The notes under the pieces: model-generated | Told to the model about the DNA's origin: nothing | Seen by the model: the letters and a program-made list of their open reading frames with translations, nothing else | Database searches by the model: none | NCBI RefSeq assembly: GCF_024298765.1 | Contig: NZ_CP101210.1 | Reading direction: 5' to 3' (one strand) | Length of the DNA stretch: 64,000 nucleotides | Source of the DNA: Escherichia coli | GTDB lineage: Bacteria; Pseudomonadota; Gammaproteobacteria; Enterobacterales; Enterobacteriaceae | Position numbers and translations under genes: made by a program | Shown: positions 12,933 to 55,878 of the stretch, in pieces | Layout of the letters: each line of letters begins with the position of its first letter | How positions within the stretch are numbered: the stretch's first letter is position 1

Positions 12933-13008
12933 GCCCGGATAGCTCAGTCGGTAGAGCAGGGGATTGAAAATCCCCGTGTCCTTGGTTCGATTCCGAGTCC
13001 GGGCACCA
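12933..13008 (+). tRNA. pheU: tRNA-Phe (anticodon GAA)
   Basis: 76-nt sequence GCCCGGATAGCTCAGTCGGTAGAGCAGGGGATTGAAAATCCCCGTGTCCTTGGTTCGATTCCGAGTCCGGGCACCA; anticodon loop ATTGAAAAT; identical to remembered E. coli tRNA-Phe; pheU assignment from yjdC neighbourhood. Confidence 0.97.
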
Positions 13009-31685: not shown

Positions 31686-31693
31686 AATGAACC

Positions 31694-34431: not shown

Positions 34432-34494
34432 TGTTAGCGTTTATATCCTGTTTTAAATACAAAAGCCCCGCTGTCGGGGCTTGTCATGTGCGTA

Positions 34495-38337: not shown

Positions 38338-41300
38338 TATTTACCTCCGGGTGCATTGTTAAATACTTTTTCAATCGGGCGACCTCCATCTATCGAATAT
38401 ACTACTTTAAATTTAGCAGGTCTGACACTATCCCCAATATACGATGGCTGAATGTTGACCTTAACCTCTTTTCCTTCACCCAATGCTTTTGCCCAAGTAT
38501 TTTCCATCTGCTTCCAGGCTCCTTTGTTCAGATTTCCATCCATTGGAACAAGGTTCAATTTTTCACCAGGACCATTAAAAATACTGGCTATTAAATGACC
38601 ACCCTCATCTCCATCAAGGCCACACTTACCTGCTTTACATTGTTGATAGCCATTTCTATCCTTTACATTAGGACTAAGAGTTGCTTCAACCTGGCTTGGC
38701 CTTGCCTGAGCATCAGTTTTATAAATTTTATCACCATCTACATGATAAACTTTATTCGGCTGTGGGTTATTTAGCTCTTTGCTCCAGTTCCCTTTACCAC
38801 CTGAGTCTAGCATCAGCTTTTCAAGTGACTCCGCACTGATTTTCTGACCTGTCTGTTTTTCAACAGCCATTAGAGCCTTCAACTCTGACAACTCGCTGGC
38901 AGACATTTTACCAACCGCCGCTACTGTCAGGCCCGCTGGAAGAGCATCGCCAGCGACCATTTCCGCAACCCAGATACTAACTTCATTTGCACACAGCACA
39001 GTATTCGCACCACAGGCACTGACTGCTGCCTGGGCGGCTGCAATTGCTTCCGGAGTCAGAGCAATCACTACCCCACCTGTAGCCCCCCCAACAAGCGCTG
39101 CTGCAATCGCTTTGTTTACAGCCTCACCGCGTTTACATTCAGCCCCGCCAGGGTTAGTCGAGCAGGACGCAATATCTTTGCCATGCTCCTGCACGAACTT
39201 GGTCTGAGTGTCTTCATTACCACCCAGCAGGTTATTCTCAACAACATTCTTCCCAGCAGCAGCTCCGGTAGCCACACCCGCAGTATTCCCACCTGCAACA
39301 CCACCCGCCATACCTGCTGAGATACTCGCCAGCGTACTTAGCGTCTGCTTCTGGTCCTCGGTCAGCTTCGACAGGTCTTTCTCATCCGGATATAAAACCT
39401 TCGCGATTGCACCTGCGATAAGTTCACCGCTCACCGCACCGACTGAACCTGCTGCGGCATTATTTCCCTGAAGAGCCGCAGTCACACCGCCGAGAATGGC
39501 ATGAGCAATGGCTTTCGCTGCATCGTTATCATTAATTCCAGCATTGTGCCCTATGAAGTTTGCCAGTTCCGGTGCAGAAGCTCCGGCCAGAGCACCCGCT
39601 AAATTCCCCCCAGCCAGTCCCTGAAGCGCGGCTGTCGCGGCCTGGATACCCCGCTGCATATCGCTACCGGTACCATACTTTTCCTGTTCCTTTTTGTATT
39701 CCGGCGTATCACGCAGTTTTGCCAGATATGCCTGCCGCTGTTCTTCCGTCGTATCCGCCGGAACAGGCCCATATTTATCCTGCGCAGCCTTCAACGCATT
39801 CAGTTCACCCTGCGTCCGCGCGATATCCGCCACCTGACTGCCTATGTCACTGATAAGCCCCACTGTCTGCAGACGCCTCTGCTCTTTCTCCTTGTCAAAT
39901 ATCGGGCTGATACTGTCGTTGGCGTGTTCCGGGTCACGGCTCAGGTTCGCCAGATTCTGCTTCTGATTGTCCCTGTCCCGGATGGTGATAGTGCCTTCTG
40001 CCACTGCGGCCTGAGTCGTTCCTTCCGCATGTCCGCTGTGACCTCCGGCGGATATCATGCCACCCGGCATGTTACCCTGAAATTTATCCCCGAAGCTGCC
40101 ACCACCGCTCAGACTGATTCCACTGTGACTGACTTTATAATCCGCTTCGTTGTGAAGGTCACTGAACCCCAGCGTTCCGGTATCCAGGTGGTTTTTATCC
40201 GGTGTGGCAGTGGAGGCAATCACCGCACCATCCAGTTGGGTATGTTTACCCACTGTGATGTCGAAGCCGCCGTCACCGGCAAACATTCCGGTTTGTTCAG
40301 CAACGGAGTCAAAGCGGCTCTTCATCTTATCCCGGGAGGCAGCGATGTAACCTGAGCCGGTCATGGAGCCAAAGGTAAAACTGCCGCCGGCAGCCACGCT
40401 GGTCTGTTTACTGTCGTACTTACTGGTGTCCTGCTGGCTGCTTATCAGCAGGTCGTGGCCCACATCGGCGATAATCCTGTTGCCGTTGACCTGAGCACCG
40501 TTCAGTACCGTATCCCGACCACTGTTGATGGTGACGGTTTTACCGCTGTCTATTGTGGTTTCAGTCCACTCAGTACCGTTACCTTTCTCGCTGCCTTTTG
40601 CCGCATTAACGCTGGCAAAGACACTGATACCGGCACCGTTACCACCGGCACCGATACTGACACCCACGCCACCGCCACTGCTGCTGTTCCTGCCCGTTGT
40701 TTTTTGTGTGTTTGCCGCGCCACTCAACAGAACATCATTCGCAGCATCCAGGTTTGTGTTACCACCGGCCTTAAGCTGGCTTCCGGCAATCACAATATCT
40801 CCGCGGTTATCGCCCCTGTTTTTACCGGTTGCGACAACAGACAGATTATTCCCGGCATTCAGCGTACTGCCGGATACTGTGTCACTTTCAGAATGTTGTT
40901 GTGATTTCGATTTCTGGGTGGTGAGCGACAGGCTGACTCCCATCGCATTCGGGTCACCGGTTGCGGAGGCCATTGCCGCAGCCTGTCCGGCCTGCACACC
41001 AGACAGCGCTGTCTTTGTAGCCTGCAGGGTTTTCAGACGGCTGTCACTGCTCTCCTTCGTCTCCTGTGCACTGGTGACCGCATTATTGATGGCACTGCCC
41101 ACTGTGCCGGAAAGGGCAACCGTCAGCCCGCTTTTCTTCTGCTCAAATTTTTCGTCCACAGTACGACGGTCATGCCCCGGGTCAACCACCACACTGTCAC
41201 CGGTAATGCTGATATCCCGGTTCGCAATCACATCCGAACCGCTGATATGAGCCTGTTTGCCCGCGGTAATACTGACATTACCGGCAGTGGAGCCGATGGT

Positions 41301-41801
41301 ACTGGCACTCTGACTCTGCGTTGTCCCGGCCTCGCGGCGGTCGTGCGTTGTCTTACTGCTGCCAATGGTGAAGCCAATACCGCCGGTACCCATCAGACCG
41401 GATTTCTTCGTTTCCTTAAAGCGCCAGGACGTATCTGTACTGGTGGCAGCAAGAACATCAACATGGTTACCCGCCGCCAGTGACACATCCCGGTCAGCCA
41501 CCACATCCGAACCCTCTACCGTCAGGTTATCACCGGCGTTAACGGTCACGCGGTTCCCCGACAGCAGGGAGCCTGCTTCACGGGAGGCACTGTTCTCACT
41601 GATGGTGTGGGTGGTTTTCTTACTGAGAAAACCTCCGCTTTTTTTCTTCGTTTCCAGATAGTGATAGTCACTTTCTGTCGCCGTGGTCAGGGCGACATCA
41701 CGACCGGCATTCACACTGATATTGCCGGTTGCGGTAACGGATGACGCAACAGCGGTGATACGCATACTGAAGAGCATTCCGTATAAAGATTCAGCTGGCA
41801 A
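38337..41801 (-). CDS. cdiA: 5-prime-truncated contact-dependent inhibition toxin CdiA fragment (FHA-repeat region, pretoxin VENN, variable CT toxin domain)
   Basis: 1154-aa ORF rich in Gly/Ser/Thr beta-helical repeats; VENN motif ([11 protein letters not shown]) encoded at 39231..39242; about 298-aa CT after VENN; no TPS domain or cdiB upstream. Confidence 0.8.
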
Positions 41802-42581: not shown

Positions 42582-43026
42582 GAAATGTTCCTTTTCAAAC
42601 CCTGTTGGATTTTGTCAAGACGGTACAGACACAGTAAAGCGCGCATCAACACCTGAAAGGTACGATACAAACACAAGTTACAAACAATAAGAACGGAAGG
42701 ACAATTAATCAGTGAGGAATAATAACTAAATTAACCAAAAGAATGTTACTGACAATACCACCAATACTTAAATAGCAATATATTAATTAATGTAAGAACA
42801 GATGCCCGGTAAGACATATACACAATACATCCACAAACACACTCTTTTCATTAAATAAATCACCTGATTAAACCATGAAAGTGTGATGTAAGTCAAAATT
42901 ACTGACACAATCAATTGATAATGATTATCTCTATCATTATCGTGAAATTCGAGAATGAAAGGAGAAGTAGTCATTATAAGTCTTTTATAAATCGTCATCA
43001 TCATAGTAAAGTAGAACACTTTTTAT

Positions 43027-43485
43027 ATGAGTTACTATATGAAAATATACTGGACAAGAAAAAACATTCCTGAACTTTCAGCACTTCCACCTTCATTAAG
43101 AAAGAAAAATTTTACTGACGCATATAATGCTGCATCTTCCCATATCGAATACTGGATAGGTGCTGGCGTCTCATTTATCTCGATGATGATTTTATTCAAA
43201 GTATATGACTTTCTTTTACCCGCCCAAGATACTTTCCCGGGTGATATCATAAGAAGTTTATGTGTTGTGTGTCCATCCATATTAATCTGGTTTCAGTTTT
43301 CGGTATATGTCATGAGGAAATATTACAGACATATTCTGGAACGAGGTAAGGAAACCGAAACCATTTCAGAAAGGTTGATACGTGAGGCTGATACACGAGA
43401 ATATGAATTATGGCGTCCGGCCCATCGCTTTTTCTCCATTATTCTATTAGTTTGCATTCATTCACTGATAACAACTATAAAATAA
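43027..43485 (+). CDS. hypothetical small membrane protein at edge of microcin cluster
   Basis: 152-aa ORF with 2-3 hydrophobic helices; no recognizable family. Confidence 0.4.
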   Translation: MSYYMKIYWTRKNIPELSALPPSLRKKNFTDAYNAASSHIEYWIGAGVSFISMMILFKVYDFLLPAQDTFPGDIIRSLCVVCPSILIWFQFSVYVMRKYYRHILERGKETETISERLIREADTREYELWRPAHRFFSIILLVCIHSLITTIK

Positions 43486-43584
43486 AAGTTATGGCTGTTC
43501 TGATACAGGAAAATAAACGTTCATTCTATGGTTACCTCTTCCTGTTATATAAAAGAATTTTAAACAACAAGTAAGGGAATATAA

Positions 43585-44271
43585 ATGGAAATAACAAAAA
43601 ATAAAAATGCAACTATAAAAAAACAGTCATCAGCCGGCTGCTTTTCAATGTTTACTTTATCATTTTCCATTACCTTTATTCCTGCATTTCTTACAAACAG
43701 GCAGGAACTTATATCCAGGGGGCTTCTTGTTCCAGCATTATTTCTTGCTGAATTTCTAATTCTTGTTCCACTGTATTTTATTTTCTTCCGAAAAAGAGAA
43801 GGATTAGGAAGAGGTTCTTTTCGACTGGATGTTTTTTTTACTCTTTTCTCTTTAATAATGATTATTCAGTTATTTGTCCCTTATCTGCTGGCAGTGAGGA
43901 AAACGGAAGAATGGATGATCTCGCAAATGTCTTTTTCCGGGGCCATTTTATGGATTAATATATTTTCTTCCGTACTTCTTGTTCCTGTATATGAAGAGAT
44001 TGTATTTCGAGGGTGTCTTTTTAACTCTTTTAAATTCTGGTTTAATGACAATATTTACATCTCTGCTATTGTAACATCAGTCATATTTTCTGCATTACAT
44101 CTACAATATACTGACTTTCGTACATTTTTGATGCTCTTTCTGATATCGTTAGTTCTTATCAGTGCAAAAATAAAGTCGAATGGCCTGTTAATGCCCATAT
44201 TACTTCACATGGCGATGAATGCAGTCATAACAGGAATACAATATACGTTACAATATCACATAACAGTCTGA
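43585..44271 (+). CDS. CPBP-family (CAAX protease/Abi) intramembrane protein, MceF/McmM-like microcin accessory protein
   Basis: 228-aa polytopic ORF with CPBP motifs EEIVFRG, FSALH and HMAMN; such genes accompany class II bacteriocin/microcin loci. Confidence 0.7.
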   Translation: MEITKNKNATIKKQSSAGCFSMFTLSFSITFIPAFLTNRQELISRGLLVPALFLAEFLILVPLYFIFFRKREGLGRGSFRLDVFFTLFSLIMIIQLFVPYLLAVRKTEEWMISQMSFSGAILWINIFSSVLLVPVYEEIVFRGCLFNSFKFWFNDNIYISAIVTSVIFSALHLQYTDFRTFLMLFLISLVLISAKIKSNGLLMPILLHMAMNAVITGIQYTLQYHITV

Positions 44272-44644
44272 AATTGTTATTATGAGATATCTATAACACC
44301 TGAAGTTGGAAAAAGAAGCAAATAATTCCTTATAAGGAATCGTTTACTAATATATTTAGATGATCTCATATTTGTTTATGATATACATCTGATTAAGATA
44401 TAATGGATTATAAATTACTCAAAGGTGAACAAATATCTTCGCCTTTTCTCGTAGAAAGAGACTTGAAACTTATAATACATCTATATAAACGTGATTTAAA
44501 TCACGATTTGCAGTAAAAGCAATTGGTATAATTCATTGGTATTACTATTATTTCATCTATTGCACGAACTATTTTACAACAATAAAAAAGATATACAAAC
44601 AGCAAGAAGTAAAAATATTCGGATAAATAAAAATTTTTGCTACC

Positions 44645-44881
44645 TTGGTTTCTATAGTCTTTATTTCTAAGTTTTTCATAAGCACTCAAAGACTCATGTA
44701 TAGGGACGGTTTAATAATGAAACTATTTTTTTATTTCTCGTTGTTCTTTATAATACAACTTATAAATTCAGACTTAGACACATTAACCCTTTATCTTTTC
44801 ATAAAGAAAATAATTCTTTCGTTACTTGCGAGTGTACTGTTTTTATTTGTTTTATCTTTCTTTAATAAAAAGAGGAAATAA
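44645..44881 (+). CDS. small hydrophobic protein, candidate microcin immunity protein
   Basis: 78-aa ORF (alternative start at 44717 gives 54 aa) ending 1 nt before the microcin-like precursor gene; two predicted TM helices. Confidence 0.45.
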   Translation: MVSIVFISKFFISTQRLMYRDGLIMKLFFYFSLFFIIQLINSDLDTLTLYLFIKKIILSLLASVLFLFVLSFFNKKRK

Positions 44882-44882
44882 C

Positions 44883-45206
44883 ATGAGAAATATAACAACC
44901 GATGAACTTGCTTTAATACATGGTGCAGGATTAGATAAAGATGCATCCGTTGCAATAGGTACTGCGGCTGGTGGTTTTTTAGGTAAAGCAACAAAAATCC
45001 CTGGTGCGGATATAGCAGGAAGTGCAATTGGAGGATATATTGGAGGAGTTATTGCTGATGGTTCAAATAGGACAATAACAATACCATCAAACGGTATTAA
45101 CTATAATCCGGGTATAGGACTTGGAAGTTTTAATCCAAACTACAATGGAGGTTTATTAAACTCAGGATTTAACTCATCAACATCCTCTTCTAGTAGTGGA
45201 AGTTGA
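44883..45206 (+). CDS. double-glycine-leader class IIb (siderophore-type) microcin precursor, identity unassigned
   Basis: ORF track 44826..45206; start at ATG 44883 (RBS aagagg) gives 107 aa; leader MRNITTDELALIHGA-G parallels MchB leader; Gly-rich core; Ser-rich C-terminal tail NSSTSSSSSGS. Confidence 0.65.
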   Translation: MRNITTDELALIHGAGLDKDASVAIGTAAGGFLGKATKIPGADIAGSAIGGYIGGVIADGSNRTITIPSNGINYNPGIGLGSFNPNYNGGLLNSGFNSSTSSSSSGS

Positions 45207-45266
45207 TTAATTTCTAAAGCAGCATAGCTTATTATGCAGCAATGCTGCTTTTAGTGATATATTATC

Positions 45267-47369
45267 CTAATTTGTAATTCTAAAAATCCGATCAACTGTT
45301 CTTAAAGTTGTCTCTCTATGTGCAATAATCACCCGGGTGATATTCATCTTTTTTATAGCAGCATTCACGAAACGTTCACTTTCTGTATCAAGAGAACTTG
45401 TAGCCTCATCCATAAATAATATTCCAGGTTTCCGGTATAAAGCTCGGGCAATGAATATACGCTGTTTTTGACCGCCGGAAAGACCTTCCCCCAGTTCACC
45501 TATTAACGTTTCATACCCCATTGGCATTTTCATTATCACATCATGAATATGACTTGCTCTGGCACATTCTGTCATCCATTCGTCGTCTGTTTCTTCTGCA
45601 AACCCACAGATATTTTCACGAATTGATCCTGAAAATAGCCGGTCGTCCTGCATAACACAGGCTATCATACGGTGATAATTATTTATTCCAAGTTGACGTA
45701 TATCCGTGCCATTAACCAGTACTTTTCCACTATCTGGTTCAAACAGTCCACATAATACTTTCATTAATGTGGTTTTTCCGGCACCGGAGGCACCAGTTAT
45801 AGCCACACTTTCTCCCGGAGCCACAGACAAATTCAGACCACTGAATACCTGTGCTGACTGGCTGTCATACCGGTAGCTTAAATCAGTGGTTTCCAGTGAA
45901 ACCGGGCTCATGTCAGCAACGATTTCAATTTCCGGTTTCTTTTCTTCCTTTTCATGTAGTGCAATATCTGCAATGCGCTCATTATGCAGACTCATTATTC
46001 TCAGTTGAAGAAGAAAACTGGTCAGCGAAGCAACCCGATCCGAAAACTGCCCACGAAAAGAACCAAATGCCACAAACATCCCTATTGTCATCTGATTATC
46101 GATCACAAGGCTTGCACCCAGCCATAAAATCGCCACCTGATCACAGGCGGCAACAAAAGTATTTATCCCCCCGAAGAGCAAATCCATCCTGGTTAACTTA
46201 ATACCTGAATTGATCGCATCTATTTTCAGGTTAAGCCAGTGTGTTCCCCGAATCCCAGCCATACCCTGGATTTTTACCGTGGCAATACCATACAGGCTTT
46301 CCATAAAATAGGAGCTGGCCCGGGCCCCCCTGACAAGAGTTTCTTCCGATATTTGCCGGTAATAGCCGTATGTCACCAGACGAATAAGAACGTAAACCAT
46401 GGTAAAACCGAGCACTATCCAGGTAAGATATCCTCCATATAACAGCATCATCACAAAAACACCCACAACCATAATACTGTCCATGATTGCCCCAACAACA
46501 CAGGTGGTAAAGGTGGCCCTCAAAGTGTCAAGGGAGCCAAAACGCGACTGGATATCACCTAATTTACGGCGTTCAAAAAACGCCAGCGGCAGTCTGAGAA
46601 GATGGTTAAACAGACCCGACTGCCACTGTATATTGATGAGCGTGCTCATAACCAGTGAGGACCATGCACGCAGCATACTCACCGCGGCCCTGAGCAATAT
46701 AAAGAACATCAGGCCAGCAGAAATAAGCGTCAGCAGCCCTCTGTCCCCCGCCGGAATCGCATGATCCATAACCAGCTGAGTTCCCACCGGCATTACCAGA
46801 TTGATTGCTTCAATTACAACTGACAGACAGAAAATTTTCGCCAGTGTTCTTTTAATACCGTAAATACTGTTAATCAGTGAACGGAGACTTATGCGGGTCT
46901 GCTGGGTTTCCGCCAGGAATTCACTTCCGGGCCAGACCTCAAGTGCAATGCCCGTAAAATACCGGCTCATTTCCTCCCGACCGAGATATCTTCTGCCTCT
47001 GGCCGGATCATGCAGTACATAACGGTTACGCTTTACGCTGACCAGCACGACGAAGTGACTGAAATCCCAGTGGAGAATACACGGCATTTTGAGGGCACCA
47101 AGTTCATCCAGCTCCAGTGAAAGAGCCCGGGTGACCATCCCCAGCTGCTCCGCTATTCCATTGATTCCTGCAAGGTTTGCTCCACGGGCCGAGAGATTAA
47201 ACTTCCGGCGAAGAGATATCAGGTCAATATTCTTACCAAAATGACCGCATATCATTGCCAGGCAGGCCAGTCCACATTCAGCGGTCTCCGTCTGATGAAT
47301 AACCGGAACACGACGTCGCCAGCGCATATCAAGCTGATTTATAATTTGTCTGAAATTCCCGTTAGTCAT
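45267..47369 (-). CDS. mchF: microcin export ABC transporter with N-terminal C39 peptidase domain (CvaB/MchF family)
   Basis: ORF track 45267..47387; near-identical over long stretches to remembered CvaB ([32 protein letters not shown]...); Walker [10 protein letters not shown], signature LSGGQKQR. Confidence 0.9.
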
Positions 47370-48636
47370 TGAGCGGTCCTGTTGCACTGTGTTTCATGTC
47401 ATAGAAAGGAGAAAGCATCCACTGGTAAATACGCCTTTTTTCCAGAAATAGTGTACTTTCGGCTTTCATTCCATTTTCCAGAGGGAGGTATTTTTCGTCA
47501 TATCTGATAATCTGCTTTTCAGGCATCGCAATGACTTTATACCAGGGAACAGAGTCGCCCGGCGTATTCTGTGGTGCTCCCTTATAGGTCAACATTTCCT
47601 GTGTTGACGCAGGAGTCCTGGATATAGTTTTAACCGTAGCAGAGAACTGCCCAAATTTTTCTGCCGGAAAGGCTTCATAACGAATATTCACTTTGTCACC
47701 AGCCGAAATATAAGGAACAGCATCATTCGGGACCCAGAGAATAAGATAATAGTTTTCAATGTTCTCAGGAATAACCTGCAGAAGGCTGTCTCCGGTATTG
47801 ACCATTTGCCCGACAGTGACACTCAAGGAGTCAACTTTCCCGTCAGTCAACGCCCGGATAATGATTTCGCCCTCCACATCAGTGTTAACCAGTTCTTTCT
47901 GTAACTCATACCGTTGCAGTTCCATCTGGTAGATACGGTTATCAAAATCTGCAGCCTGAGTCTGAATCTGACTCTCCAGAGTGGTTATCTGCAGGGCATT
48001 CTGTTCGTTCTGTCCGCTCAGGCTGAGAAGATTGTTTTGTTGCTGATAATATAATGCCACCTGGTTAGTTAACTGATCTTTATTAATCAGCCCTTTTGCC
48101 TGATAGTTTCTGTAATTCTCCATATTGTTTTTCATTATTTTTATCCCTTCCTCTGCACGCTGTATAATATCTGATGAGCGACGAAACGCATCTGTGTATT
48201 GCAGGCGTTGTTTTTCCAGGGTATCTAGCGTTATTTTTTTACTTTCTTCCAGACGGGAAATAATGTTGTCCACACGAACCAACTGGTTTTCTATATCCCG
48301 ACGATGATTATCAGTGACAATACCACTACGTGTACTTTTACTGATGTCAATCAGATAAACAGGATCCCCTTTTTTTATCAACTGTCCTTCATGAACAAAC
48401 TGCCTGACAACAAATCCCTGTACACCTGAATATATATTGACAGCTCTTGGCCAGGTTGTGACCTCACCACTGACATTAACACGGCGGCTATAGGTACCAA
48501 CAATAATGAACATCAGAAATGCCGTAATAAACACTATGCTTCCCAGCATGATTAACCATAGTGGTATTCCGGGAAGTAATATTGCCCGTCCCTGCCACTT
48601 CATTTTTCTGTTTTCTAAAGCATCCTGACGAAACAA
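47362..48636 (-). CDS. mchE: microcin secretion membrane-fusion protein (CvaA/MchE, HlyD family)
   Basis: 424-aa ORF; N-terminal TM anchor, coiled-coil region; matches remembered CvaA. Confidence 0.9.
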
Positions 48637-48788
48637 AATAGCTCCTCTTACTCACACTTTTCCTGTAATACCTTCACTGGTTAACCGAAATGCTATAATC
48701 AAAGCCAGAAAATATAGAGTCCTGTTAAAATAGTATCAGCGATGCATTTACCCCGTAATTTACAATTATCTCTGTATCTTCAGAGGTA

Positions 48789-49241
48789 CTACGTTTTATG
48801 CAGCCGCTCAGGGATGTATGTCACAATTTTCTTTCGCCTGCTTAACCATCGTACTTCTCCTTCTCCCCATGGCTGAAGCTGTATGAGATAGTCAATAACT
48901 TTTCGACCAAAGCCTGGTTTACAACAGAAATCCAGAATCCAAATCCTTCCATCTTCATTCCATTCAGACGGATGCAACCTGAATTCTGGATCCCTGAGCA
49001 GGCGCGCTTCTGTATCAGCCTCAAGATATGCCCAGGTAATATACGCCAGTGGAAAACCTCGTGAATCAAACAGGAATTTAATCTGATTATGCTGTATCGC
49101 ATATTCAGTCCAGTATTGAATGGTTAACACCGGATACAGACTGTAATTACGATTGTAGAGCATACAACTGACCGCAAAACCGATCTGTTCATAAACAGTC
49201 CATTCATCTTTTCCTCTGATGTTTTCCCTTATATAAGACAT
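48789..49241 (-). CDS. mchD: microcin maturation accessory protein (MchD/MceI-like)
   Basis: 150-aa ORF between mchE and mchC; assignment by synteny with the H47/E492 systems as remembered. Confidence 0.55.
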   Translation of the reverse strand: MSYIRENIRGKDEWTVYEQIGFAVSCMLYNRNYSLYPVLTIQYWTEYAIQHNQIKFLFDSRGFPLAYITWAYLEADTEARLLRDPEFRLHPSEWNEDGRIWILDFCCKPGFGRKVIDYLIQLQPWGEGEVRWLSRRKKIVTYIPERLHKT

Positions 49242-49266
49242 GATTACTATTTCCCTTATATATTTT

Positions 49267-50817
49267 TTACACTGTGTTTCTTATCGGTTCAAGATATCCA
49301 AATGCATCTCTGGAAAACTTAAGCATAAAATTTTTCATATCAGAAATTGCTTCTTGTAAAAAAAGGGGATCATCGCCATGATTATCCAGCAGGATGGCAA
49401 TTTTTTCGCACATATTCTCTTTCCTCAGCTCTTCCCTGGGTTGCAGCCTTTTCATGGTATGATGTTCAATTTCTTTCAGGAGTAATGAGGCATTTATCTG
49501 ACGTCTGGTACTGCCTTGCGTCAGCCAGTGGATGGCCTGGGAAAAACACTGTTGTGCAACGGTGAAATAAACATCATTCTTGATGCTACTATTCAGTGCC
49601 TGCTTTTGATTATGCCTATGATGGATTAGCGTCACAACCAACTTTTGCAATGGTGAACCATCCTGATTGACAATATCTTGGGCATGTGATTTCTCGCAGT
49701 ATTGATTGAGTAATGCAACAAAACTGTTAACCAGTTCTTTCAATATATCAGGTATCTCTTTTTGTGTTATAAATTCTCCAGGAATACCCAACAGTTCTAG
49801 ATAACAGTAATAACATGCTTCATGAAAAGTTTTCTGAAATATCTCCTCAACCTTCAAACGGGCTGCAAGAGTGAAGTCAGGGTCAAACATATATTTTCCG
49901 ATATACAAGCAGAGATCAGACAGCCCTTGCATAAGTACCATCGGTTCTTTTGCCAGTTCAGCTAATCTTAGTTTATACCCAAAATCAGCTGGGGAATCTC
50001 CCGGAAACAGACAACTGAGTCCGCTAAAATCCATTAATCTGCCATCCATTGCAATATTAGAAGGAGAAGTTGTCAATCTCAGGAAACGTGTTCGACAAAA
50101 TGCCATTTGCCAGGCCTCACGACGTGCCAGTTCACATAACCCCTCAATGCAATAAATCCGGGGATCAGTTCGTGCTTCAGCATCAATTTCTTCCGGTGGT
50201 ACAGGTAGATATCCTGGCAGCTTGTGGATCACAGATCTAACCCGACAGGCATCGTGAATTAACAGACTGGAATACTCCGGTTTTACTTGGAAGTAAGGTG
50301 CCCGTTCAAAATGCGCCGGACGAACAACAGGCTCACGTACCAACAGGGCTCTTCGTGATTTCCTACCGGAGCGCTCAAATGCCTTTTCAGTATAGAGATC
50401 TGTAAGTAAAACCGCCCGAACCCGCACAGCACTATAAGGTAATATTTGAGCCAGTACTTCTCCCCACAAAGCCTCATATATTGCATGAACAGCGCCGAGT
50501 GCACCATTAGAATGACGTTCGTCAGTACCTTCGCCAACCAACGGATTACTTCCTATTCCTTTAACCTGGTAGTTACCATCAAACCCACAACGTGCACCAC
50601 CTCCATTACGCTGAATACCACTGCCACCATAGCGCTCTGCATGGAACACTTTGGCAGAAGCTGTACTGCCAGGATCGATAATATAACTGCAGGCATTTTG
50701 CAGCTCGTCTGGATTTCTGACATCCTCTGCACACCAGATTAATGAGGCCTTGATCTGCCTGGCAGTGAAAGGCACCAGGTTTTCATTCAGTTCAGAAAGT
50801 GAACACTGATGACTCAT
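49267..50817 (-). CDS. mchC: microcin maturation protein (MchC/MceJ-like)
   Basis: 516-aa ORF immediately downstream of mchB; size and position match remembered MchC. Confidence 0.6.
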   Translation of the reverse strand: MSHQCSLSELNENLVPFTARQIKASLIWCAEDVRNPDELQNACSYIIDPGSTASAKVFHAERYGGSGIQRNGGGARCGFDGNYQVKGIGSNPLVGEGTDERHSNGALGAVHAIYEALWGEVLAQILPYSAVRVRAVLLTDLYTEKAFERSGRKSRRALLVREPVVRPAHFERAPYFQVKPEYSSLLIHDACRVRSVIHKLPGYLPVPPEEIDAEARTDPRIYCIEGLCELARREAWQMAFCRTRFLRLTTSPSNIAMDGRLMDFSGLSCLFPGDSPADFGYKLRLAELAKEPMVLMQGLSDLCLYIGKYMFDPDFTLAARLKVEEIFQKTFHEACYYCYLELLGIPGEFITQKEIPDILKELVNSFVALLNQYCEKSHAQDIVNQDGSPLQKLVVTLIHHRHNQKQALNSSIKNDVYFTVAQQCFSQAIHWLTQGSTRRQINASLLLKEIEHHTMKRLQPREELRKENMCEKIAILLDNHGDDPLFLQEAISDMKNFMLKFSRDAFGYLEPIRNTV

Positions 50818-51088
50818 CTGGCAGTATTCTCCGTTTCAATTTTCATAAAAGAGTGTTCATAAAAGAGCAAGTAAGTGTCCTGACAGCTTCTTCCTTATTA
50901 CAGTAAAACTCTATTAATTACACATAAATTAAAAAATTATTTATCAACGACTGTAAATCATATCTTCATCAGTAAAGTGTTGAACATAAAAACACACTTA
51001 TAAATGGATCTTCTATCTGTTTTAAACAAAAAGGATATATTTTACAGGTACTACCGAAAAAGTGCCTGTAAAATAAATAAAAATATAA

Positions 51089-51316
51089 TTAGCTACCGCC
51101 ACCAGCAGAAGAACTGGCACTACCACTTCCCACGGTCGAGCCAATTGCTGTTGTCAAACCGGCAGATACGGCTCCAACTACAACCCCAAGTGGACCACCA
51201 GGTATTCCGGCGAGAGCTCCAACAATAGCTGCAGCACCTGCAGCATTAGCTGAAGTCGCTGGCGCACCTCCCGCCCCGGAAATATATCTTAACTGTGATT
51301 CTGTTATTTCTGGCAT
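51089..51316 (-). CDS. mchB: microcin H47 precursor
   Basis: 75-aa ORF M(P)EITESQLRYISGA-GGAPATSANAAGAAAIVGALAGIPGGPLGVVVGAVSAGLTTAIGSTVGSGSASSSAGGGS; core matches remembered MccH47 sequence. Confidence 0.9.
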   Translation of the reverse strand: MPEITESQLRYISGAGGAPATSANAAGAAAIVGALAGIPGGPLGVVVGAVSAGLTTAIGSTVGSGSASSSAGGGS

Positions 51317-51343
51317 ATAAACTGCATATAAACTCCATCATAT

Positions 51344-51553
51344 TTAACTTCCGTTTTTCCAGTCTGACCAGACCAGAATCCTTCGAATCCCATGAATCAG
51401 CTCAATAAAACCAAGAAATATTATAAAGCTTAGAAAAACGTCAACATAAGAATTCCCTTCGCCAACAATCCGAAGGGATGAAAGTGAAACCAATAAGATA
51501 GTAATAGGTAAACTGAATATAGCCGTCAATTGGGACAGTTTTTTATAACTCAT
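51344..51553 (-). CDS. mchI: microcin H47 immunity protein
   Basis: 69-aa hydrophobic ORF immediately upstream of mchB on same strand; size matches MchI. Confidence 0.75.
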   Translation of the reverse strand: MSYKKLSQLTAIFSLPITILLVSLSSLRIVGEGNSYVDVFLSFIIFLGFIELIHGIRRILVWSDWKNGS

Positions 51554-51964
51554 TAATCCCTACCTGTTGCTTTATTTTCATTATGAAAAGTTACCAAATC
51601 TTAGCACCTCAGTCAGGAGAGTCAGGTCATCGATAAAGAATATTCCAGTAGAGTGGCGCTCATGATCAAAGATAACAGCAAAGTTGATGACAGTGCTGAC
51701 CGACTGTCATTTACAGAAACCCTGTTTGTAGCAAATTCCATCTTACCTGACCTCACCCAGACAAAGACAAAAGAGAATGATTGTTATTTACTTTTCAAAA
51801 AAAGTGTCATATTGTCCATATAAAGTCAAGAGGTATTTTACGTTATGTCACTGATGCAATTGTTAGTCAGGATCTCATGGTTGTCGCTCATGTATAACCT
51901 GAGACTTGAACGCACACTAATAGCGCTGACGGTCATACATCGGGAAATGTGAGGAGGCATAAGA

Positions 51965-52210
51965 ATGAATTGTGATAATAATCACAGAAATGAAGAATTC
52001 ATTGTTACCTTTGATAAAGGCAACAAGCAAGACAATTCAAGACGAAAACACGATAATTTTCCTATAGAGGTAGAATCCTCCGTAGAGCAGGAGACACACT
52101 GTATCACAAATAATAAGTCAGCTTCCGGTATAGTAACACATGACTATGATGCCGATTATATTTGTGGTTGTGGTGAAATTATGTGTCCTGGTTGCGGTCA
52201 TGACCTATAA
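51965..52210 (+). CDS. small Cys-rich hypothetical protein
   Basis: 81-aa ORF with C-terminal CGCGEIMCPGCGH cluster; no family assignable; coding status uncertain. Confidence 0.3.
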   Translation: MNCDNNHRNEEFIVTFDKGNKQDNSRRKHDNFPIEVESSVEQETHCITNNKSASGIVTHDYDADYICGCGEIMCPGCGHDL

Positions 52211-52365
52211 CAAACATTTTTGCAAACTGATACCTGATCAGGTACAAGCCTGTTGATTATTATGCTGAATATTTCATGTTATAAAACCATCGATATAAAC
52301 ATTAACAAGAAAAAACATATATTGTTTATCTGAACATTTATCGATGGAAAACCAAAGGGGAAAGT

Positions 52366-52800
52366 ATGTATCTTACGAAAAAGATTATAATAAGTATGAT
52401 GTTTATATTACCATCTGCTGCATTTTCATCAGATCCACCTCCCCTTCAACAATCGTTAGAAAAAACAACCTATTTTTCTATAGGTATGAATGGGTTTATA
52501 GGCTATCAGAGCGAAGGGGAAAAATTATACACACACATTCTTACATTAGATAATCCCGAAGAGATATTTAAAAATATAATAGAAAATAGAAAGTCAACTA
52601 AGGAGTCTAAAATTTATGCTGCTTGTGGGCTATATTATTTAAACGTAGAAAATATAGAGTCATTGTTTAATGAAAATGATAAACAAGAATATATGTCTGT
52701 CTTAAGAGGGGATATTTTAACAAAAATAAAACTGAATGATATTCTGAATTCTGTGATAATAAATGGTTGCAACACCAAATTAATATCTGAACATAAATGA
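52366..52800 (+). CDS. secreted small protein adjacent to microcin-like precursor (possible immunity/accessory protein)
   Basis: 144-aa ORF with Sec signal peptide (MYLTKKIIISMMFILPSAAFS); ends 16 nt before the precursor gene. Confidence 0.45.
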   Translation: MYLTKKIIISMMFILPSAAFSSDPPPLQQSLEKTTYFSIGMNGFIGYQSEGEKLYTHILTLDNPEEIFKNIIENRKSTKESKIYAACGLYYLNVENIESLFNENDKQEYMSVLRGDILTKIKLNDILNSVIINGCNTKLISEHK

Positions 52801-52816
52801 GCAGGAGGTTTTTAAA

Positions 52817-53053
52817 ATGAGAGAAATATCAGATCACATGCTTGATTTCGTGAAAGGAGGGATGAATCTTAATGGATTACCTAGTTCTACTAATGTAATA
52901 GATCTACGAGGAAAAGATATGGGAACATATATTGATGCTAATGGAACATGCTGGGCTCCGGGTACTCCATCCATCATCATGTATCCGGGGGGAAGTGGAC
53001 CTTCTTATAGTATGAGTAGTTCCACATCCAGCGTAAACAGCGGCACATCATAA
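52817..53053 (+). CDS. double-glycine-leader class IIb microcin-like precursor (possibly MccI47-type; identity not confirmed)
   Basis: 78-aa ORF; leader MREISDHMLDFVKGG; Ser-rich C-terminus SMSSSTSSVNSGTS; located next to IroD/IroB homologues. Confidence 0.6.
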   Translation: MREISDHMLDFVKGGMNLNGLPSSTNVIDLRGKDMGTYIDANGTCWAPGTPSIIMYPGGSGPSYSMSSSTSSVNSGTS

Positions 53054-53337
53054 ATACCCTCCGGCATGGCCGGAGGGTATTTATGATGTGCCTGTAAGAC
53101 TCTACTTCTGTCGTCTCTTTACAAAGGCATATGATCTGTCATTTTGTACCAGACATCTTAACGAGAGCCTTTTCATATATTACTTACATACGTGAAATCT
53201 ACAGTATAAAGCAAAAATTTTATTAAACCTGTTTTATATTTATCATCAATACAACAGATTTAATTCCGGAAAGTCACTCATCATCCCTTGAATGAACGTC
53301 ATTTGATGTATTATTCTTACACTTGGATTAATTTAAG

Positions 53338-54612
53338 ATGATACCTATGAAAAACTATCTTTTCCAGACTCCCGAAGATATTTGTGTACAGTTAAAAAAA
53401 ATGACACATCCTGTCACAATAAGAACAACAGATATTGCTAATTTCTGGCACTATCTTGAGTCAGCAACACTTCCAGTGATCACAAAAAGCACCACTACAG
53501 AAAATCGGGAGGTTACATTTCTGTGGCGCTCAGAGAAAGCACTGCAAGGCGTATATCTTCGCCTGAATCGTGTTACAGATAAAAAAGACGTCAAAAAAGG
53601 ACTAATGACTCATATCCCTTCGACAGATATCTGGATGCTGACACTGGTGTTACCAGCTTCATATCGGGGCTCATACTCATTTATAGAAATTCCCACAGAT
53701 ATGACACAAAAAGACATATTTCAACTAGGAAGTCGCTTCTCTCCATTACCCGGTAAATCTGATCCATTTAACAAAACAGCAGAAATAAATATACGAGGAT
53801 TCGGAGAATCAGTCCTTTCTCTTGATATGGCTCCTGAACAAAAGGAATGGGATGATACTTCCCATAAATGTACAGGTATTCTTTCAATATTACATTCCTT
53901 TGTTGCAGGATATCAACGCCGGATTCGTTTATATTTCCCCCTGAATCCAACATCAGTACCTCTTGGATTACTTGTGTTACCTGATGCTGAAACATGGTTT
54001 GACCGGATAGATATTACCCGGGCATTAGATATGGCCATCACCACTGGTCGTATCACGCCAATGGCAATTATGGGGATAGACAATATTAATGAATCTGATC
54101 GTATGAATATACTGGGAGGCAATAAAGAACTCATCTTTGATATAGCGGAAAATCTGATACCCCAGTTATACAGAGACTATCCGGATATCGTATGGGCTGG
54201 TCGCTCTAATACTGTACTGGCCGGGCAGAGCCTCGGTGGAGTGACAGCACTGATGGCAGCTATATATGCGTCGACAACATTTGGTACAATCATTAGTCAC
54301 TCACCTTCAATGTGGTGGAACCCTGACCAGGGCAGCCCGATCTTGTTTACTGAGAATAATACCTCCTGGGTAAGTGAGCAGATACTTTCAGCGCCTCCGA
54401 AAGATGTAAATATCCGACTTGGAGTCGGTTCTTTAGAAGGTACAACCGTCTCACATGTTCAGCGATTGCATCATTCGTTAATCGCAGCTGGTTTGGAAAG
54501 TAACCTCACTGTCTATACCGGTGGTCACGATTATGCTTGGTGGCGCGGAGCAATTATTGATGAATTAGCAAATTATAATTGCAGGAAGGTATCAAATAAT
54601 AACTCTGTGTAA
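53338..54612 (+). CDS. enterobactin/salmochelin esterase homologue (IroD/Fes-like; MceD/McmK/MchS1-type)
   Basis: 424-aa ORF with serine-hydrolase motif GQSLGG. Confidence 0.7.
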   Translation: MIPMKNYLFQTPEDICVQLKKMTHPVTIRTTDIANFWHYLESATLPVITKSTTTENREVTFLWRSEKALQGVYLRLNRVTDKKDVKKGLMTHIPSTDIWMLTLVLPASYRGSYSFIEIPTDMTQKDIFQLGSRFSPLPGKSDPFNKTAEINIRGFGESVLSLDMAPEQKEWDDTSHKCTGILSILHSFVAGYQRRIRLYFPLNPTSVPLGLLVLPDAETWFDRIDITRALDMAITTGRITPMAIMGIDNINESDRMNILGGNKELIFDIAENLIPQLYRDYPDIVWAGRSNTVLAGQSLGGVTALMAAIYASTTFGTIISHSPSMWWNPDQGSPILFTENNTSWVSEQILSAPPKDVNIRLGVGSLEGTTVSHVQRLHHSLIAAGLESNLTVYTGGHDYAWWRGAIIDELANYNCRKVSNNNSV

Positions 54613-54753
54613 AATATCGTTTTATCGTCCGATAACTCTTTCTGCAATATTATTATGGGAGACTGTCTCATTTATTTAGTGATGTCCTTCATTTATGTGA
54701 TGAAGGACATTATATTACTCATAACATTTCTCGTTGAAAATTTCAGCAATACG

Positions 54754-55878
54754 CTACAATTGTTTCCCGTTGTTTTTTAATTTTCTCATCAAAACCTCTG
54801 CGATCTCTGCAGGAGTGGGTTGTTCAGCCATTTCAGCGGCTACCTGATCTGAACAGAAGCGTAGTGAATCATCATAAAGCAGGCGATTTACCAAATCACT
54901 GGTCAGTCCATGCTTGTCCGGAATAATCCCACACCCACGCTTCGCAACAATTTCTGCATTAACAGAGCGATCTGCACCTTCTCCAAACACAATCTGTGGT
55001 ATTCCACTATACAGCGCTGTCAGGGTATTACCTGCGCCACCGTGATGAATAAATCCATCAGCTCCATTAAGGAATACACCCATAGGTATCCAGTCAACCA
55101 GACGTACATTTGATGGTAGTTTTCGTAATCCAGTACGAGCATTTATTGCAAGTTGCAAAATGATATCAGCATCAACTTCATTTGCTGAATCCATAACCCA
55201 TGAAATCAGCTCCAGACCATCAACCATTGGTTTTACAGTGCCAAGGCTGATGAGTAAACGTTTCCGATCAGAATCCCTGTCCCACCATGTTTCCTTTACA
55301 GCACCTCCGTTATAAGGAATATATCGCATTGAGATAATCGGTTCTTCAGCATTTTTAAGAATGCTCATACTTGGGGGAGCAACATCAATCCATGCTAAAT
55401 CACATAGTGGACCGCTGACTCCATGCCGCCTGTAAGCATTGCTTAAAGAACGGTTTAACATCTGAATATGGGCAGATGTATGCGCGAATCCAACAGCCAG
55501 CATCACTGAAGAAATTCTATATTTAGCAGCAACCAATGGGCCTGCCGGACCAAGCGGGGGATAGACTATTAAATCTGGCCTCCATTTTCCTGCAAAATCG
55601 ATGAGGTTATCTGCCATTTCATCGCTAAAAAAAGAGAAATGACCAATAATATTACTTTTTTTCCTCAACTCTTCCTGATGACGATATCCAGCCTCTGAAT
55701 CTAAACTTGGAGCTGCATCAAAAACAACCAGTCCAGCTTCTGCTGCTTTATTCGCGAATTTGCCAGCGCTACTAATTACTACATCATGTCCGATTACACG
55801 AAAGGCCTGAGCCAGAGAAATCAATGGGTATAACAAACCGTACAGCGGAGGGCCAATAAAAAGAATACGTTTTCGCAT
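54754..55878 (-). CDS. IroB-like C-glycosyltransferase (MceC/McmL/MchA-type) for siderophore-microcin maturation
   Basis: 374-aa ORF; GT1-family architecture; C-terminal donor-binding region ...HHGGAGNTLTALYSGIPQIVF... Confidence 0.7.
   Translation of the reverse strand: MRKRILFIGPPLYGLLYPLISLAQAFRVIGHDVVISSAGKFANKAAEAGLVVFDAAPSLDSEAGYRHQEELRKKSNIIGHFSFFSDEMADNLIDFAGKWRPDLIVYPPLGPAGPLVAAKYRISSVMLAVGFAHTSAHIQMLNRSLSNAYRRHGVSGPLCDLAWIDVAPPSMSILKNAEEPIISMRYIPYNGGAVKETWWDRDSDRKRLLISLGTVKPMVDGLELISWVMDSANEVDADIILQLAINARTGLRKLPSNVRLVDWIPMGVFLNGADGFIHHGGAGNTLTALYSGIPQIVFGEGADRSVNAEIVAKRGCGIIPDKHGLTSDLVNRLLYDDSLRFCSDQVAAEMAEQPTPAEIAEVLMRKLKNNGKQL

Follow-up and report, generated by a model that had tools for sequence, protein, structure and literature searches.

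Sequence analysis of a class IIb microcin island, assigned to the Ec W type, at pheU in Escherichia coli

Identity and integrity of the island

The stretch of E. coli DNA analysed here, referred to as the window, comprises 64 kb. Its region 43027-55878 holds, with high confidence, an intact copy of a class IIb microcin island known from earlier work on E. coli; the copy is of the "Ec W type" and forms part of a genomic island integrated at pheU. We identified 16 intact genes, namely the mcmT-like gene, mcmM, EcWI, EcWA, mchF, mchE, mchD, mchC, mchB, mchI, mchX, mchS4, mchS3, mchS2, mchS1 and mchA, between the start of the mcmT-like ORF at 43027 and the start of mchA at 55878; the locus probably also includes the Fur-box-like promoter region at 42911-42941. 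The initial annotation had described a complete siderophore-microcin island, and this description holds, as the IroB- and IroD-like enzymes, MchCD, the MchEF exporter and three precursors are all present. The whole 12.85 kb is 100% identical at the nucleotide level to E. coli ACN002. Among 5426 complete E. coli genomes, 155 cover at least 80% of the 12.85-kb locus and 116 (about 2%), O104:H4 among them, carry the Ec W cassette. Judged by its sequence, the island is real but ordinary and previously known, with the iron-chelator-tagged microcins H47, I47 and Ec W as its predicted products.

The tRNA-Phe gene at 12933..13008 (+), which is the attachment site, is pheU according to its flanking genes: one flank consists of yjdC(dicD)-dsbD-cutA-dcuA-aspA, and on the other a P4-type integrase gene (13206-14468) follows. 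The microcin locus lies approximately 30 kb inside this island, in agreement with its earlier placement in a pheU island.

No internal stops or frameshifts were found in the 16 ORFs at 43027-55878, the lengths of which all agree with those of their orthologues, and no IS elements are located inside the microcin locus of the window. This includes mchC, mchD and the IroB-like gene, for which frameshifts or truncations had been considered initially; every tailoring gene is full length. These results bear on the possibility that the locus has decayed to a remnant, as did the islands of Nissle 1917, CFT073 and 536, and is either inactive or reliant on iroA-like loci. Truncated islands are common (PMC7472721), the related loci L007 and L008 have IS insertions in or beside mchS1, and in ACN002 an IS2 lies just beyond mchA. 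However, with 16 of 16 ORFs full length, an IS-free locus and both mchA and mchS1 intact, such a remnant is scarcely credible and is refuted at the sequence level.

Precursors and immunity genes

The 64-kb window was scanned in all six frames with the regular expression M-x12-G-[GA] combined with a Ser/Gly-rich tail ending in Ser. Exactly three ORFs were obtained, at 44883-45206 (+), 51089-51316 (-) and 52817-53053 (+), each with a 15-residue GG/GA leader and a Ser-terminated, Ser/Gly-rich tail, which matches the three double-glycine precursors counted in the initial annotation. A lack of homology to microcins had been considered there; all three are microcins. The MccI47 and MccH47 precursors are 94-99% identical to alleles of other islands. 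That the second precursor is MccI47 and the third Ec W, for which EcWI is the immunity gene, had not been stated in the initial annotation.

The Ec W cassette (44245..45281) is 1037 bp long with 30% GC. It contains EcWI (44717..44881, +), encoding the 54-aa immunity peptide of Ec W, and EcWA (44883..45206, +), encoding the 107-aa Ec W precursor with the leader MRNITTDELALIHGA and the tail ...STSSSSSGS. EcWA is 100% identical to WP_001390454.1 (NCTC10444_03266; NCTC10444 3367929-3368252), the gene of which was named Ec WA and activity-tested in 2025; Ec W was active, and EcWI was required for immunity (PMC12999681). A single base separates the end of the 165-nt EcWI ORF from the ATG of EcWA, and the NCTC10444 copy likewise encodes 54 aa with a 1-nt gap to EcWA (PMC12999681); the two peptides are 96% identical, differing in 2 of 54 residues. 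EcWI has a predicted hydrophobic TM segment and is unannotated in RefSeq records. Between the convergent EcWA and mchF lies a terminator-like hairpin, identified by consensus match only (GCAGCAATGCTGC followed by TTTTAG; 45236..45248, +).

Similarity to cluster 1 of NCTC10444 ends at 44244 and restarts at 45282; one break point falls within the final 9 codons of mcmM, the other within approximately the final 4 codons of mchF. The cassette has no similarity to MccM-type islands and stands in place of their 742-bp mcmI-mcmA cassette. This exact replacement bears out the modular character proposed for the locus, and judged by its sequence context, the Ec W immunity-toxin pair occupies an exchangeable cassette where the 3' ends of mcmM and mchF converge.

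The third ORF has no match to any NCBIfam model and is a "hypothetical protein" in RefSeq, so it might be asked whether it encodes not a siderophore-microcin but microcin M or an unmodified class IIa microcin, or is a Gly/Ser-rich ORF that arose by chance in AT-rich spacer DNA. This is very improbable. The ORF matches Ec WA at 100% identity, and Ec WA proved active on expression, with a cognate immunity peptide (PMC12999681); all four published class IIb criteria (PMC11634061) apply to EcWA. The Ec W and mcmI-mcmA cassettes share zero nucleotide similarity, and McmA read from L010 looks unrelated. Two homologues of EcWA, each 66% identical, were found, one on a Salmonella plasmid and the other in metagenomic sequence, and the plasmid homologue adjoins mchCDEF homologues. 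In favour of the alternative readings, the homologue P0005 has no Ser-rich tail and no adjoining mchCDEF on its short contig. Microcin M and the chance ORF are refuted as readings.

The MccI47 precursor is encoded by mchS2 (mciA; 52817..53053, +), which is unannotated in ACN002 and in cluster 2 of NCTC10444. The 78-aa allele ends in ...SVNSGTS and is 95-96% identical to a 77-aa allele ending in ...SANSGS; the C-terminus is -GTS as opposed to -GS in the other Ser-tailed precursor sequences read. The exact 78-aa sequence occurs on at least 1000 contigs versus 277 for the single 77-aa member listed. A perfect 23-bp inverted repeat forming a terminator-like hairpin (53042..53092, +) covers with its 5' arm the mchS2 stop and the last three codons, and its predicted folding energy is -47.2 kcal/mol compared to -37.1 kcal/mol for the 77-aa allele, in which the stem is interrupted. 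The 144-aa MccI47 immunity protein is encoded by mchS3 (mciI; 52366..52800, +; PGAP name mchS3) and scores 137 bits against the NCBIfam model NF041432 MchS3 (cutoff 100). Further upstream, mchS4 (51965..52210, +; 81 aa) is 100% identical to the NCTC10444 copy, and its 90% cluster includes "MchS4 protein Q712P8".

The MccH47 precursor gene mchB (51089..51316, -; 75 aa; PGAP "microcin H47") is accompanied by mchI (51344..51553, -), encoding the 69-aa MccH47 immunity protein with two predicted TM segments. MchB differs from the allele of 8 other loci by a single residue, R2P in the leader (CGA to CCA at codon 2), which among 10 loci read is restricted to the window and ACN002; position 2 is Arg in every other leader read (MchS2, EcWA, McmA, P0005 and P0007). 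In addition, the stretch from the GGAG ribosome-binding site to the mchB ATG contains an 11-bp tandem duplication (AGTTTATATGC x2; 51313..51334, -). As a result, the position optimal for the Shine-Dalgarno sequence is taken by a decoy ATG, and the true ATG is 16 nt from GGAG. As the duplication displaces the mchB ATG and R2P alters a conserved leader Arg, MccH47 output may be reduced in the window allele.

Taken further, the island could be intact on paper and yet deliver functionally only two microcins, with MccH47 poorly translated, since the duplication moves the mchB ATG away from its ribosome-binding site and introduces a decoy ORF of 7 codons, and maybe poorly processed because of R2P. 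The duplication is found in L001-L008 and in all EcW-type loci read, and is missing from the MccM-type L010, ATCC 25922 and Nissle, the last of which is documented to produce MccH47 (PMC7472721). However, the mini-ORF and mchB overlap, with the mchB ATG 8 nt upstream of the mini-ORF stop, so that ribosomes finishing the mini-ORF could start again at this ATG, and the duplication is common and stable (approximately 103 of 292 mchB-positive records) while mchB and mchI stay intact, which argues for retained MccH47 function. To our knowledge, leader position -14 is no hydrophobic or GG position of C39 recognition, which counts against a processing defect caused by R2P. We therefore regard an output of only two microcins as unlikely, albeit worth considering, and retain the reading of an island encoding three.

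Tailoring, export, regulation and proposed mechanism

The genes mchI-mchB-mchC-mchD-mchE-mchF were found on the minus strand at 45267-51553, as initially annotated. MchF (45267..47369, -; 700 aa) is a C39-peptidase ABC exporter with the domains Peptidase_C39, ABC_membrane and ABC_tran; its alignment with PCAT1, ComA and HlyB structures spans the full length of the protein, and its translation shows the catalytic-Cys motif AECGLAC, a Walker motif and the signature LSGGQKQR. MchE (47362..48636, -; 424 aa, TTG start) is a HlyD/CvaA-type membrane-fusion adaptor of the HlyD family and 100% identical to NCTC10444 MchE. The CvaB-like exporter and CvaA-like membrane-fusion protein reported earlier are thus confirmed.

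The mchD gene (48789..49241, -; 150 aa) encodes a HlyC-family acyltransferase-like MceI homologue (PF02794 HlyC, PGAP name), and the intact mchC (49267..50817, -; 516 aa) encodes a MceJ homologue, the exact sequence of which is named "MchC protein" and has no match in NCBIfam or in precomputed Pfam records. The role of MchD and MchC is to link the siderophore to the peptide (PMC7472721). The esterase with the motif GQSLGG and the glycosyltransferase seen initially correspond to mchS1/mcmK (53338..54612, +; 424 aa), an IroD-like enterobactin esterase, and mchA/mcmL (54754..55878, -; 374 aa), an IroB-like GT1 enzyme, with homology to IroD and IroB, respectively (PMC7472721). MchS1 contains the domains Enterochelin_N and Esterase, matches Fes structures at E 2e-24, and reaches 193 bits (E 8e-57) with the Fes-built enterochelin esterase model NF007758, which is under its curated cutoff of 222 bits.

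McmM (43585..44271, +), a MceF homologue, belongs to the CPBP/Rce1-like intramembrane protease family (PF02517 Rce1-like, CPBP NCBIfam matches, PGAP name), and its 228 aa and multi-TM profile agree with the published protein (PMC6795089). The intact mcmT-like gene (43027..43485, +; 152 aa) is a candidate accessory microcin-resistance gene kept upstream of mcmM in EcW-type and MccM-type islands alike. Its product has no NCBIfam match, and its orthologues have no precomputed Pfam match on record; with predicted TM helices at 46-66, 74-96 and 133-152 it fits McmT, which has 156 aa and 3 TM (PMC6795089), the window allele lacking, by a deletion, 4 aa of the 156-aa form. Both genes, as well as mchX, mchS4 and mchS3, were missing from the initial annotation.

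Six Fur-box-like sites of at least 14/19 were found within 42-57 kb, compared to 0.9 expected from shuffles. The best match, GATAATGATTATCTCTATC (42917..42935; 17/19 to consensus), precedes the mcmT-like ORF by approximately 90 nt, coincides in part with a -35/-10-like pair (42915-42943) and is kept in 10 of 10 related loci read; the scan for promoter-like sites in general was at chance level (45 versus 45.1 expected). Another site (51773..51791; 14/19) lies 32 nt upstream of mchX, in agreement with the position of the published functional mchX Fur box (PMC7472721, PMC6071977). The small regulatory ORF mchX (51622..51741, -; 39 aa) is identical to UniRef Q83ZA9 "MchX", and its regulatory role is taken from the literature (PMC6071977).

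From the homologous systems H47, M and E492, we infer the following mechanism, with the enzyme roles, uptake and Fur control as published (PMC7472721, PMC6071977). Iron limitation would lift Fur repression at the sites upstream of mchX (published) and of the mcmT-like gene and mcmM (the stronger consensus match), and the three precursors MchB (MccH47), MchS2 (MccI47) and EcWA (Ec W) would be translated. Host-made enterobactin would be C-glucosylated by MchA, ester-linked by MchC and MchD to the carboxylate of the C-terminal serine of the precursor, and its trilactone linearised by MchS1. The C39 peptidase domain of MchF would then cut the 15-residue leader after GG/GA, and MchF and MchE would export the product with chromosomal TolC. 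Target enterobacteria would import the siderophore-peptide via catecholate receptors and TonB. For MccH47, the likely target is the F0 part of ATP synthase; the core of Ec W, which is Gly-rich and GxxxG-like, suggests an action at the inner membrane. The producer would be protected by the small membrane proteins MchI, MchS3 and EcWI, each encoded directly upstream of its precursor, with McmM and the McmT-like protein as putative accessory factors.

Comparison with known systems

The island resembles CvaAB in its C39-peptidase ABC transporter and HlyD-type adaptor cleaving a double-glycine leader, and iroB/iroD in its GT1 C-glycosyltransferase and Fes-like esterase acting on enterobactin. Unlike iroB/iroD, the window enzymes would serve peptide tailoring instead of siderophore supply and are linked to MchCD, a pair for which we know of no counterpart in iroA or cva loci. 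The MccE492 cluster of Klebsiella pneumoniae RYC492 (mceABCDEFGHIJ, mceX) follows the same logic with the same enzyme set: MceC corresponds to MchA, MceD to MchS1, MceJ/I to MchC/D, MceG/H to MchF/E, MceF to McmM, and MceX, with a Fur box, to MchX. However, its precursors and immunity proteins are unlike those of the window; with the E492 microcin model, MchB remained sub-threshold (18 bits, cutoff 50) and EcWA was unmatched.

The Nissle 1917 and CFT073 islands have the mchXIBCDEF core and mcmM in common with the window, but are 5' truncated without MccI47 genes (PMC7472721); they carry MccM in place of Ec W and no mchB duplication, and the mchI-mchB junction matches the window at approximately 91%. 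The CA46-type island (MccH47, MccI47 and MccM), represented by cluster 1 of NCTC10444, shares the mcmT-like gene, mcmM, mchF/E/D/C/B/I/X and mchS4/S3/S2 at 95.6-97.5% identity. It differs in having no 11-bp duplication ahead of mchB and, between mcmM and mchF, mcmI-mcmA on the minus strand, whereas EcWI-EcWA of the window are on the plus strand.

The second class IIb cluster of NCTC10444 (H47/I47/Ec W; Bhattarai, Bucci & Mortzfeld 2025, PMC12999681) has the same gene order from the mcmT-like gene to mchA and 97.97% nucleotide identity across 14.9 kb. In contrast to this cluster, the window has an intact mcmT-like ORF, which is frameshifted in NCTC10444, MchB R2P, and the 78-aa MccI47 allele with GG in the leader instead of VKRG. 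Of 15 kb of left flank compared, approximately 0.9 kb aligns, and the NCTC10444 cluster (L002) has no tRNA gene or integrase nearby, unlike the window island. The reported closest relative of Ec W is microcin Gq W of Gibbsiella quercinecans (PMC11634061), which defines the W clade (PMC12999681).

Gene content and genomic context of the microcin locus

The stretch at 43027-55878 contains 16 uninterrupted ORFs, all intact and full length, which rules out a truncated remnant. The dedicated export pair is encoded on the minus strand and consists of the C39-peptidase ABC exporter MchF (45267-47369), which combines the domains Peptidase_C39, ABC_membrane and ABC_tran and, along its entire length, aligns with the structures of PCAT1, ComA and HlyB, and the membrane-fusion protein MchE (47362-48636), an HlyD-type adaptor with a TTG start. 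The tailoring set is also intact and comprises the MchC/MchD (MceJ/MceI) pair, i.e., MchC (49267-50817, minus strand; named as in the sources) and the HlyC-like MchD (48789-49241, minus strand), as well as an IroD-like esterase, MchS1 (53338-54612, plus strand), and an IroB-like glycosyltransferase, MchA (54754-55878, minus strand). MchS1 contains Enterochelin_N and Esterase domains with the nucleophile motif GQSLGG and matches Fes structures, and MchA belongs to the GT1 enzymes, with natural-product glycosyltransferases among its relatives; the homology of MchA to IroB and of MchS1 to IroD has been described (PMC7472721). Between these genes lie mchB (51089-51316), mchI (51344-51553) and mchX (51622-51741; exactly the sequence of UniRef Q83ZA9) on the minus strand, and mchS4 (51965-52210; clustering with Q712P8), mchS3 (52366-52800; above the curated NCBIfam MchS3 cutoff) and mchS2, also named mciA (52817-53053), on the plus strand.

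At the other end of the locus, mcmM (43585-44271, plus strand) encodes a 228-aa CPBP/Rce1-like protein homologous to MceF. It is preceded by an ORF for a 152-aa membrane protein (43027-43485, plus strand) with three transmembrane segments in a hydropathy scan. McmT is a 156-aa protein with three transmembrane segments, for which a thesis reported resistance to MccH47 and MccM (PMC6795089), and the predicted product of this ORF fits a McmT-like protein. NCBIfam scans gave no match for EcWA, EcWI, MchS2, MchX, MchS4, MchC, MchD, MchI and the mcmT-like ORF, which is uninformative rather than negative evidence, and for MchB nothing other than a sub-threshold match to the E492 model.

The initial annotation had described a complete siderophore-microcin island embedded in a pheU island. 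The observation is confirmed and its interpretation supported: the gene content is borne out, the domain evidence agrees with the gene names, and no frameshift or truncation interrupts mchC, mchD or the IroB-like gene. The single tRNA in the window, a tRNA-Phe (12933-13008), has yjdC-dsbD-cutA as neighbours towards the core and an integrase gene (13206-14468) towards the island. Since positions 1-14981 are collinear with the segment epmB...groSL...aspA-dcuA-cutA-dsbD-dicD(yjdC)-tRNA-Phe-integrase of E. coli ACN002, the tRNA is pheU, and these flanks place the integration at this gene.

About 30 kb of island DNA separates pheU from the microcin locus and contains IS elements, a type I restriction-modification system and a gene for a CdiA-like toxin truncated at its N-terminal end. 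The restriction-modification block (31020-37911), situated between pheU and the microcin locus, contains hsdS (31694-32800), hsdM (32797-34431) and an hsdR-like gene (34495-37911) together with an AAA ATPase gene, named according to the collinear ACN002 annotation. The toxin gene (38337-41801, minus strand) encodes hemagglutinin repeats and a nuclease-like C-terminal end, and is followed in ACN002 by a YezG-family immunity gene; with its adjacent ORF it resembles an orphan module for contact-dependent inhibition next to the microcin genes. The segment 14981-28024, which is not present in ACN002, encodes a 1171-aa SF1 helicase-like protein with weak matches to anti-phage helicase models, a 499-aa protein of the phosphoethanolamine-transferase family, a 246-aa protein with a sub-threshold match to an adhesin (Adr) model, and IS66/IS3 transposases.

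Three class IIb precursors and the identity of the third

All six frames of the whole window were scanned for a Met followed by 12 residues, a Gly and a further Gly or Ala, and then a tail rich in Ser and Gly with a terminal Ser. Exactly three ORFs matched, EcWA, MchB and MchS2, in line with the three double-glycine precursors counted in the initial annotation. Mortzfeld et al. defined class IIb microcins by a leader of 15 residues with GG or GA at its end, no more than one Cys, a Ser-rich C-terminus with Ser as the last residue, and an ORF with a transmembrane segment, the immunity gene, at a distance of at most 200 bp (PMC11634061). All four features were found for each of the three precursors. 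The C-terminal tails are ...FNSSTSSSSSGS in EcWA, ...SGSASSSAGGGS in MchB and ...SSSTSSVNSGTS in MchS2, the allele of the latter having Thr instead of Gly at position -2; the Cys counts are 0, 0 and 1, and the leaders read MRNITTDELALIHGA, MPEITESQLRYISGA and MREISDHMLDFVKGG. EcWI, with a predicted transmembrane segment, has its stop codon 1 nt upstream of EcWA; the corresponding distance is 27 nt for mchI, with two predicted segments in its product, and mchB, and 16 nt for mchS3 and mchS2. A crude 19-residue hydropathy window called no transmembrane segment in MchS3, which matches the NCBIfam MchS3 family. MchB is the MccH47 precursor, and the second precursor is that of MccI47 (mchS2/mciA), with mchS3 as its immunity gene.

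The third precursor, left unnamed in the initial annotation, is that of microcin Ec W, a 107-aa peptide described by Bhattarai, Bucci and Mortzfeld (2025) in E. coli NCTC10444. Its gene is located there between mchF and mcmM in opposite orientation; the peptide lacks Cys, its 15-aa leader has GA at the end, and it is accompanied by an immunity ORF of 165 nt, the stop codon of which lies one nucleotide upstream of Ec WA (PMC12999681). The EcWA of the window (44883-45206, plus strand; 107 aa) is identical in 107/107 positions (tblastn) to WP_001390454.1 (NCTC10444_03266, NZ_LR134092 3367929-3368252) and shares with it the location between mchF and mcmM and the opposite orientation. WP_001390454.1 is the RefSeq protein at the coordinates published for Ec WA, and ACN002 carries this accession too, at the position with 100% identity to the window. 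The 54-aa hydrophobic ORF EcWI (44717-44881, plus strand) is 96% identical to the NCTC10444 copy and has the published length and spacing. The identification used the coordinates and description of Ec W (PMC12999681), checked against the RefSeq record; a full-text literature search with EcWA sequence strings and WP_001390454 found no paper. Ec W is active on E. coli, Klebsiella, Salmonella and other genera, and its immunity peptide is required (PMC12999681).

MccM as the third precursor was ruled out by comparison with cluster 1 of NCTC10444, an MccM-type island, which carries mcmI-mcmA at this position without nucleotide similarity to the cassette of the window. Its McmA, compared with EcWA by eye and without alignment, looks unrelated beyond the leader and the Ser tail. 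The window is 95.6% similar to this island up to 44244 and 97.5% from 45282 on, with no similarity between, and therefore a 1037-bp EcWI-EcWA cassette (44245-45281, plus strand) with 30% GC replaces a 742-bp mcmI-mcmA cassette on the minus strand. Similarity breaks off within the final 9 codons of mcmM and resumes within the final ~4 codons of mchF, and the swapped cassettes thus lie between two convergent gene ends. This exchange supports the modular competition locus suggested in the initial annotation and agrees with a remark in the Ec W paper.

Homologues of EcWA were also found elsewhere. The Salmonella enterica plasmid CP191517 (299 kb) encodes, directly downstream of mchC/D/E/F homologues, a 109-aa homologue with 66% identity and a Ser/Gly tail ending in GGGS (10001-10330 of the extracted locus L011), which may represent an undescribed 'Se W' microcin. 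Another homologue, P0005, comes from short metagenomic contigs without mchCDEF and has no Ser tail. The sequence P0006 resembles a low-quality or edited read and was ignored.

Predicted regulation and allele variants

A scan of 15 kb for the Fur consensus revealed six sites of at least 14/19, compared with 0.9 expected from shuffled sequences. The best match, a predicted site with 17/19 at 42917-42935, lies about 90 nt upstream of the mcmT-like gene, overlaps a -35/-10-like pair (region 42911-42941) upstream of this gene and mcmM, and is conserved in all ten loci read, in islands of both the EcW and the MccM type; no mention of it was found in the literature searched. A 14/19 match lies 32 nt upstream of mchX, the position of a published functional Fur box (PMC7472721; PMC6071977). 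Several matches of 13-14/19 inside the mchE and mchF coding sequences were put down to chance in AT-rich DNA. A generic sigma-70 scan was not above chance, with 45 sites as opposed to 45.1 expected, and therefore no promoters are claimed from it apart from the overlap with the Fur-like site.

By analogy with homologous, experimentally studied systems (PMC7472721; PMC6071977), iron limitation would relieve Fur repression, MchA would glucosylate enterobactin, MchC and MchD would couple the product to the C-terminal Ser of all three precursors, and MchS1 would linearise the siderophore. MchF would cleave the leader and, together with MchE and TolC, export the peptides, which would enter competitors via catecholate receptors and TonB, the producer being protected by MchI, MchS3 and EcWI.

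The alleles of the window show three peculiarities. Firstly, an 11-bp tandem duplication (AGTTTATATGC x2; 51313-51334, minus strand) separates the GGAG ribosome-binding site from the ATG of mchB. The ATG of its first copy takes the optimal spacing and opens an out-of-frame overlapping mini-ORF of 7 codons (MQFICQK, then stop), and the true mchB ATG is 16 nt from GGAG. The duplication is present in all EcW-type loci read and in ~103/292 mchB-positive records, and absent from the MccM-type cluster, Nissle and ATCC 25922. Secondly, codon 2 of mchB (51311-51313) is CCA instead of CGA, which results in the substitution R2P in the leader of MccH47. Of the 10 loci read, only the window and ACN002 have this change, the lost Arg being conserved in all other leaders read. 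Its frequency, roughly 11-20 of the 292 mchB-positive records, is a rough estimate from the identity bands of a 129-nt search, because the exact sequence of the R2P MchB, like that of EcWI, is absent from the protein collection used for exact look-up; the alleles were sampled in the 10 loci and these bands. Thirdly, the MccI47 allele has 78 aa and ends in -SGTS, not -SGS. Its last codons (GGC ACA TCA TAA) contribute the 5' arm to an inverted repeat with a perfect 23-bp stem (53042-53092), made complete by the changed codons and interrupted in the 77-aa allele, and the change looks like a hairpin-templated one reaching into the ORF. The 78-aa allele is the commoner of the two listed (at least 1000 contigs vs. 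277). None of these peculiarities interrupts a gene, so the integrity claimed in the initial annotation is unaffected.

Which of the three peptides is made could depend on the duplication, on R2P and on the -GTS tail of MccI47, and in view of these variants the functional output of all three microcins is a prediction. We consider it unlikely overall that in islands of the Ec W lineage the duplication, through its decoy ATG at the Shine-Dalgarno position and the overlapping mini-ORF behind it, acts as a translational attenuator or switch, compounded in the present allele by R2P and shifting the output from MccH47 towards Ec W and MccI47, and that, separately, the mcmT-like gene and mcmM form a Fur-controlled operon for broad microcin resistance; neither proposal was found in the literature searched.

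Distribution and comparison with known systems

Siderophore-microcins shape how Enterobacteriaceae compete with one another in the gut, and work is under way to engineer them into probiotics. The 12.85-kb stretch is covered to at least 80% in 155 of 5426 complete E. coli genomes, and the Ec W cassette occurs in 116 of these 5426, always on the chromosome and including O104:H4 2011C-3493. The exact EcWA protein was found in ~14,000 indexed blocks of a public-assembly collection. The cassette is therefore far commoner than the 29 genomes first reported, with outbreak O104:H4 among its carriers. The standard RefSeq annotation lists Ec WA as 'hypothetical' and omits EcWI and, in the records read here, also the MccI47 precursor, and genome surveys consequently under-count these toxins.

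The whole 12.85-kb stretch is 100% identical to that of ACN002, which differs in an IS2 inserted just beyond mchA (18954-20182 of its locus) that is missing from the window; in spite of the identity, the window therefore does not stem from ACN002. In cluster 2 of NCTC10444, the strain from which Ec W is known, the MccI47 precursor (11864-12094 of its locus) reads VKRG and not VKGG where the leader is cleaved, and its double-glycine motif is thus broken. As the locus is an already published system, this copy is known and represents no new kind of system: besides Ec W, the island corresponds to the classical H47/CA46 system, the description of which dates from 1990 to 2010 (for summaries, see PMC7472721 and PMC6795089).
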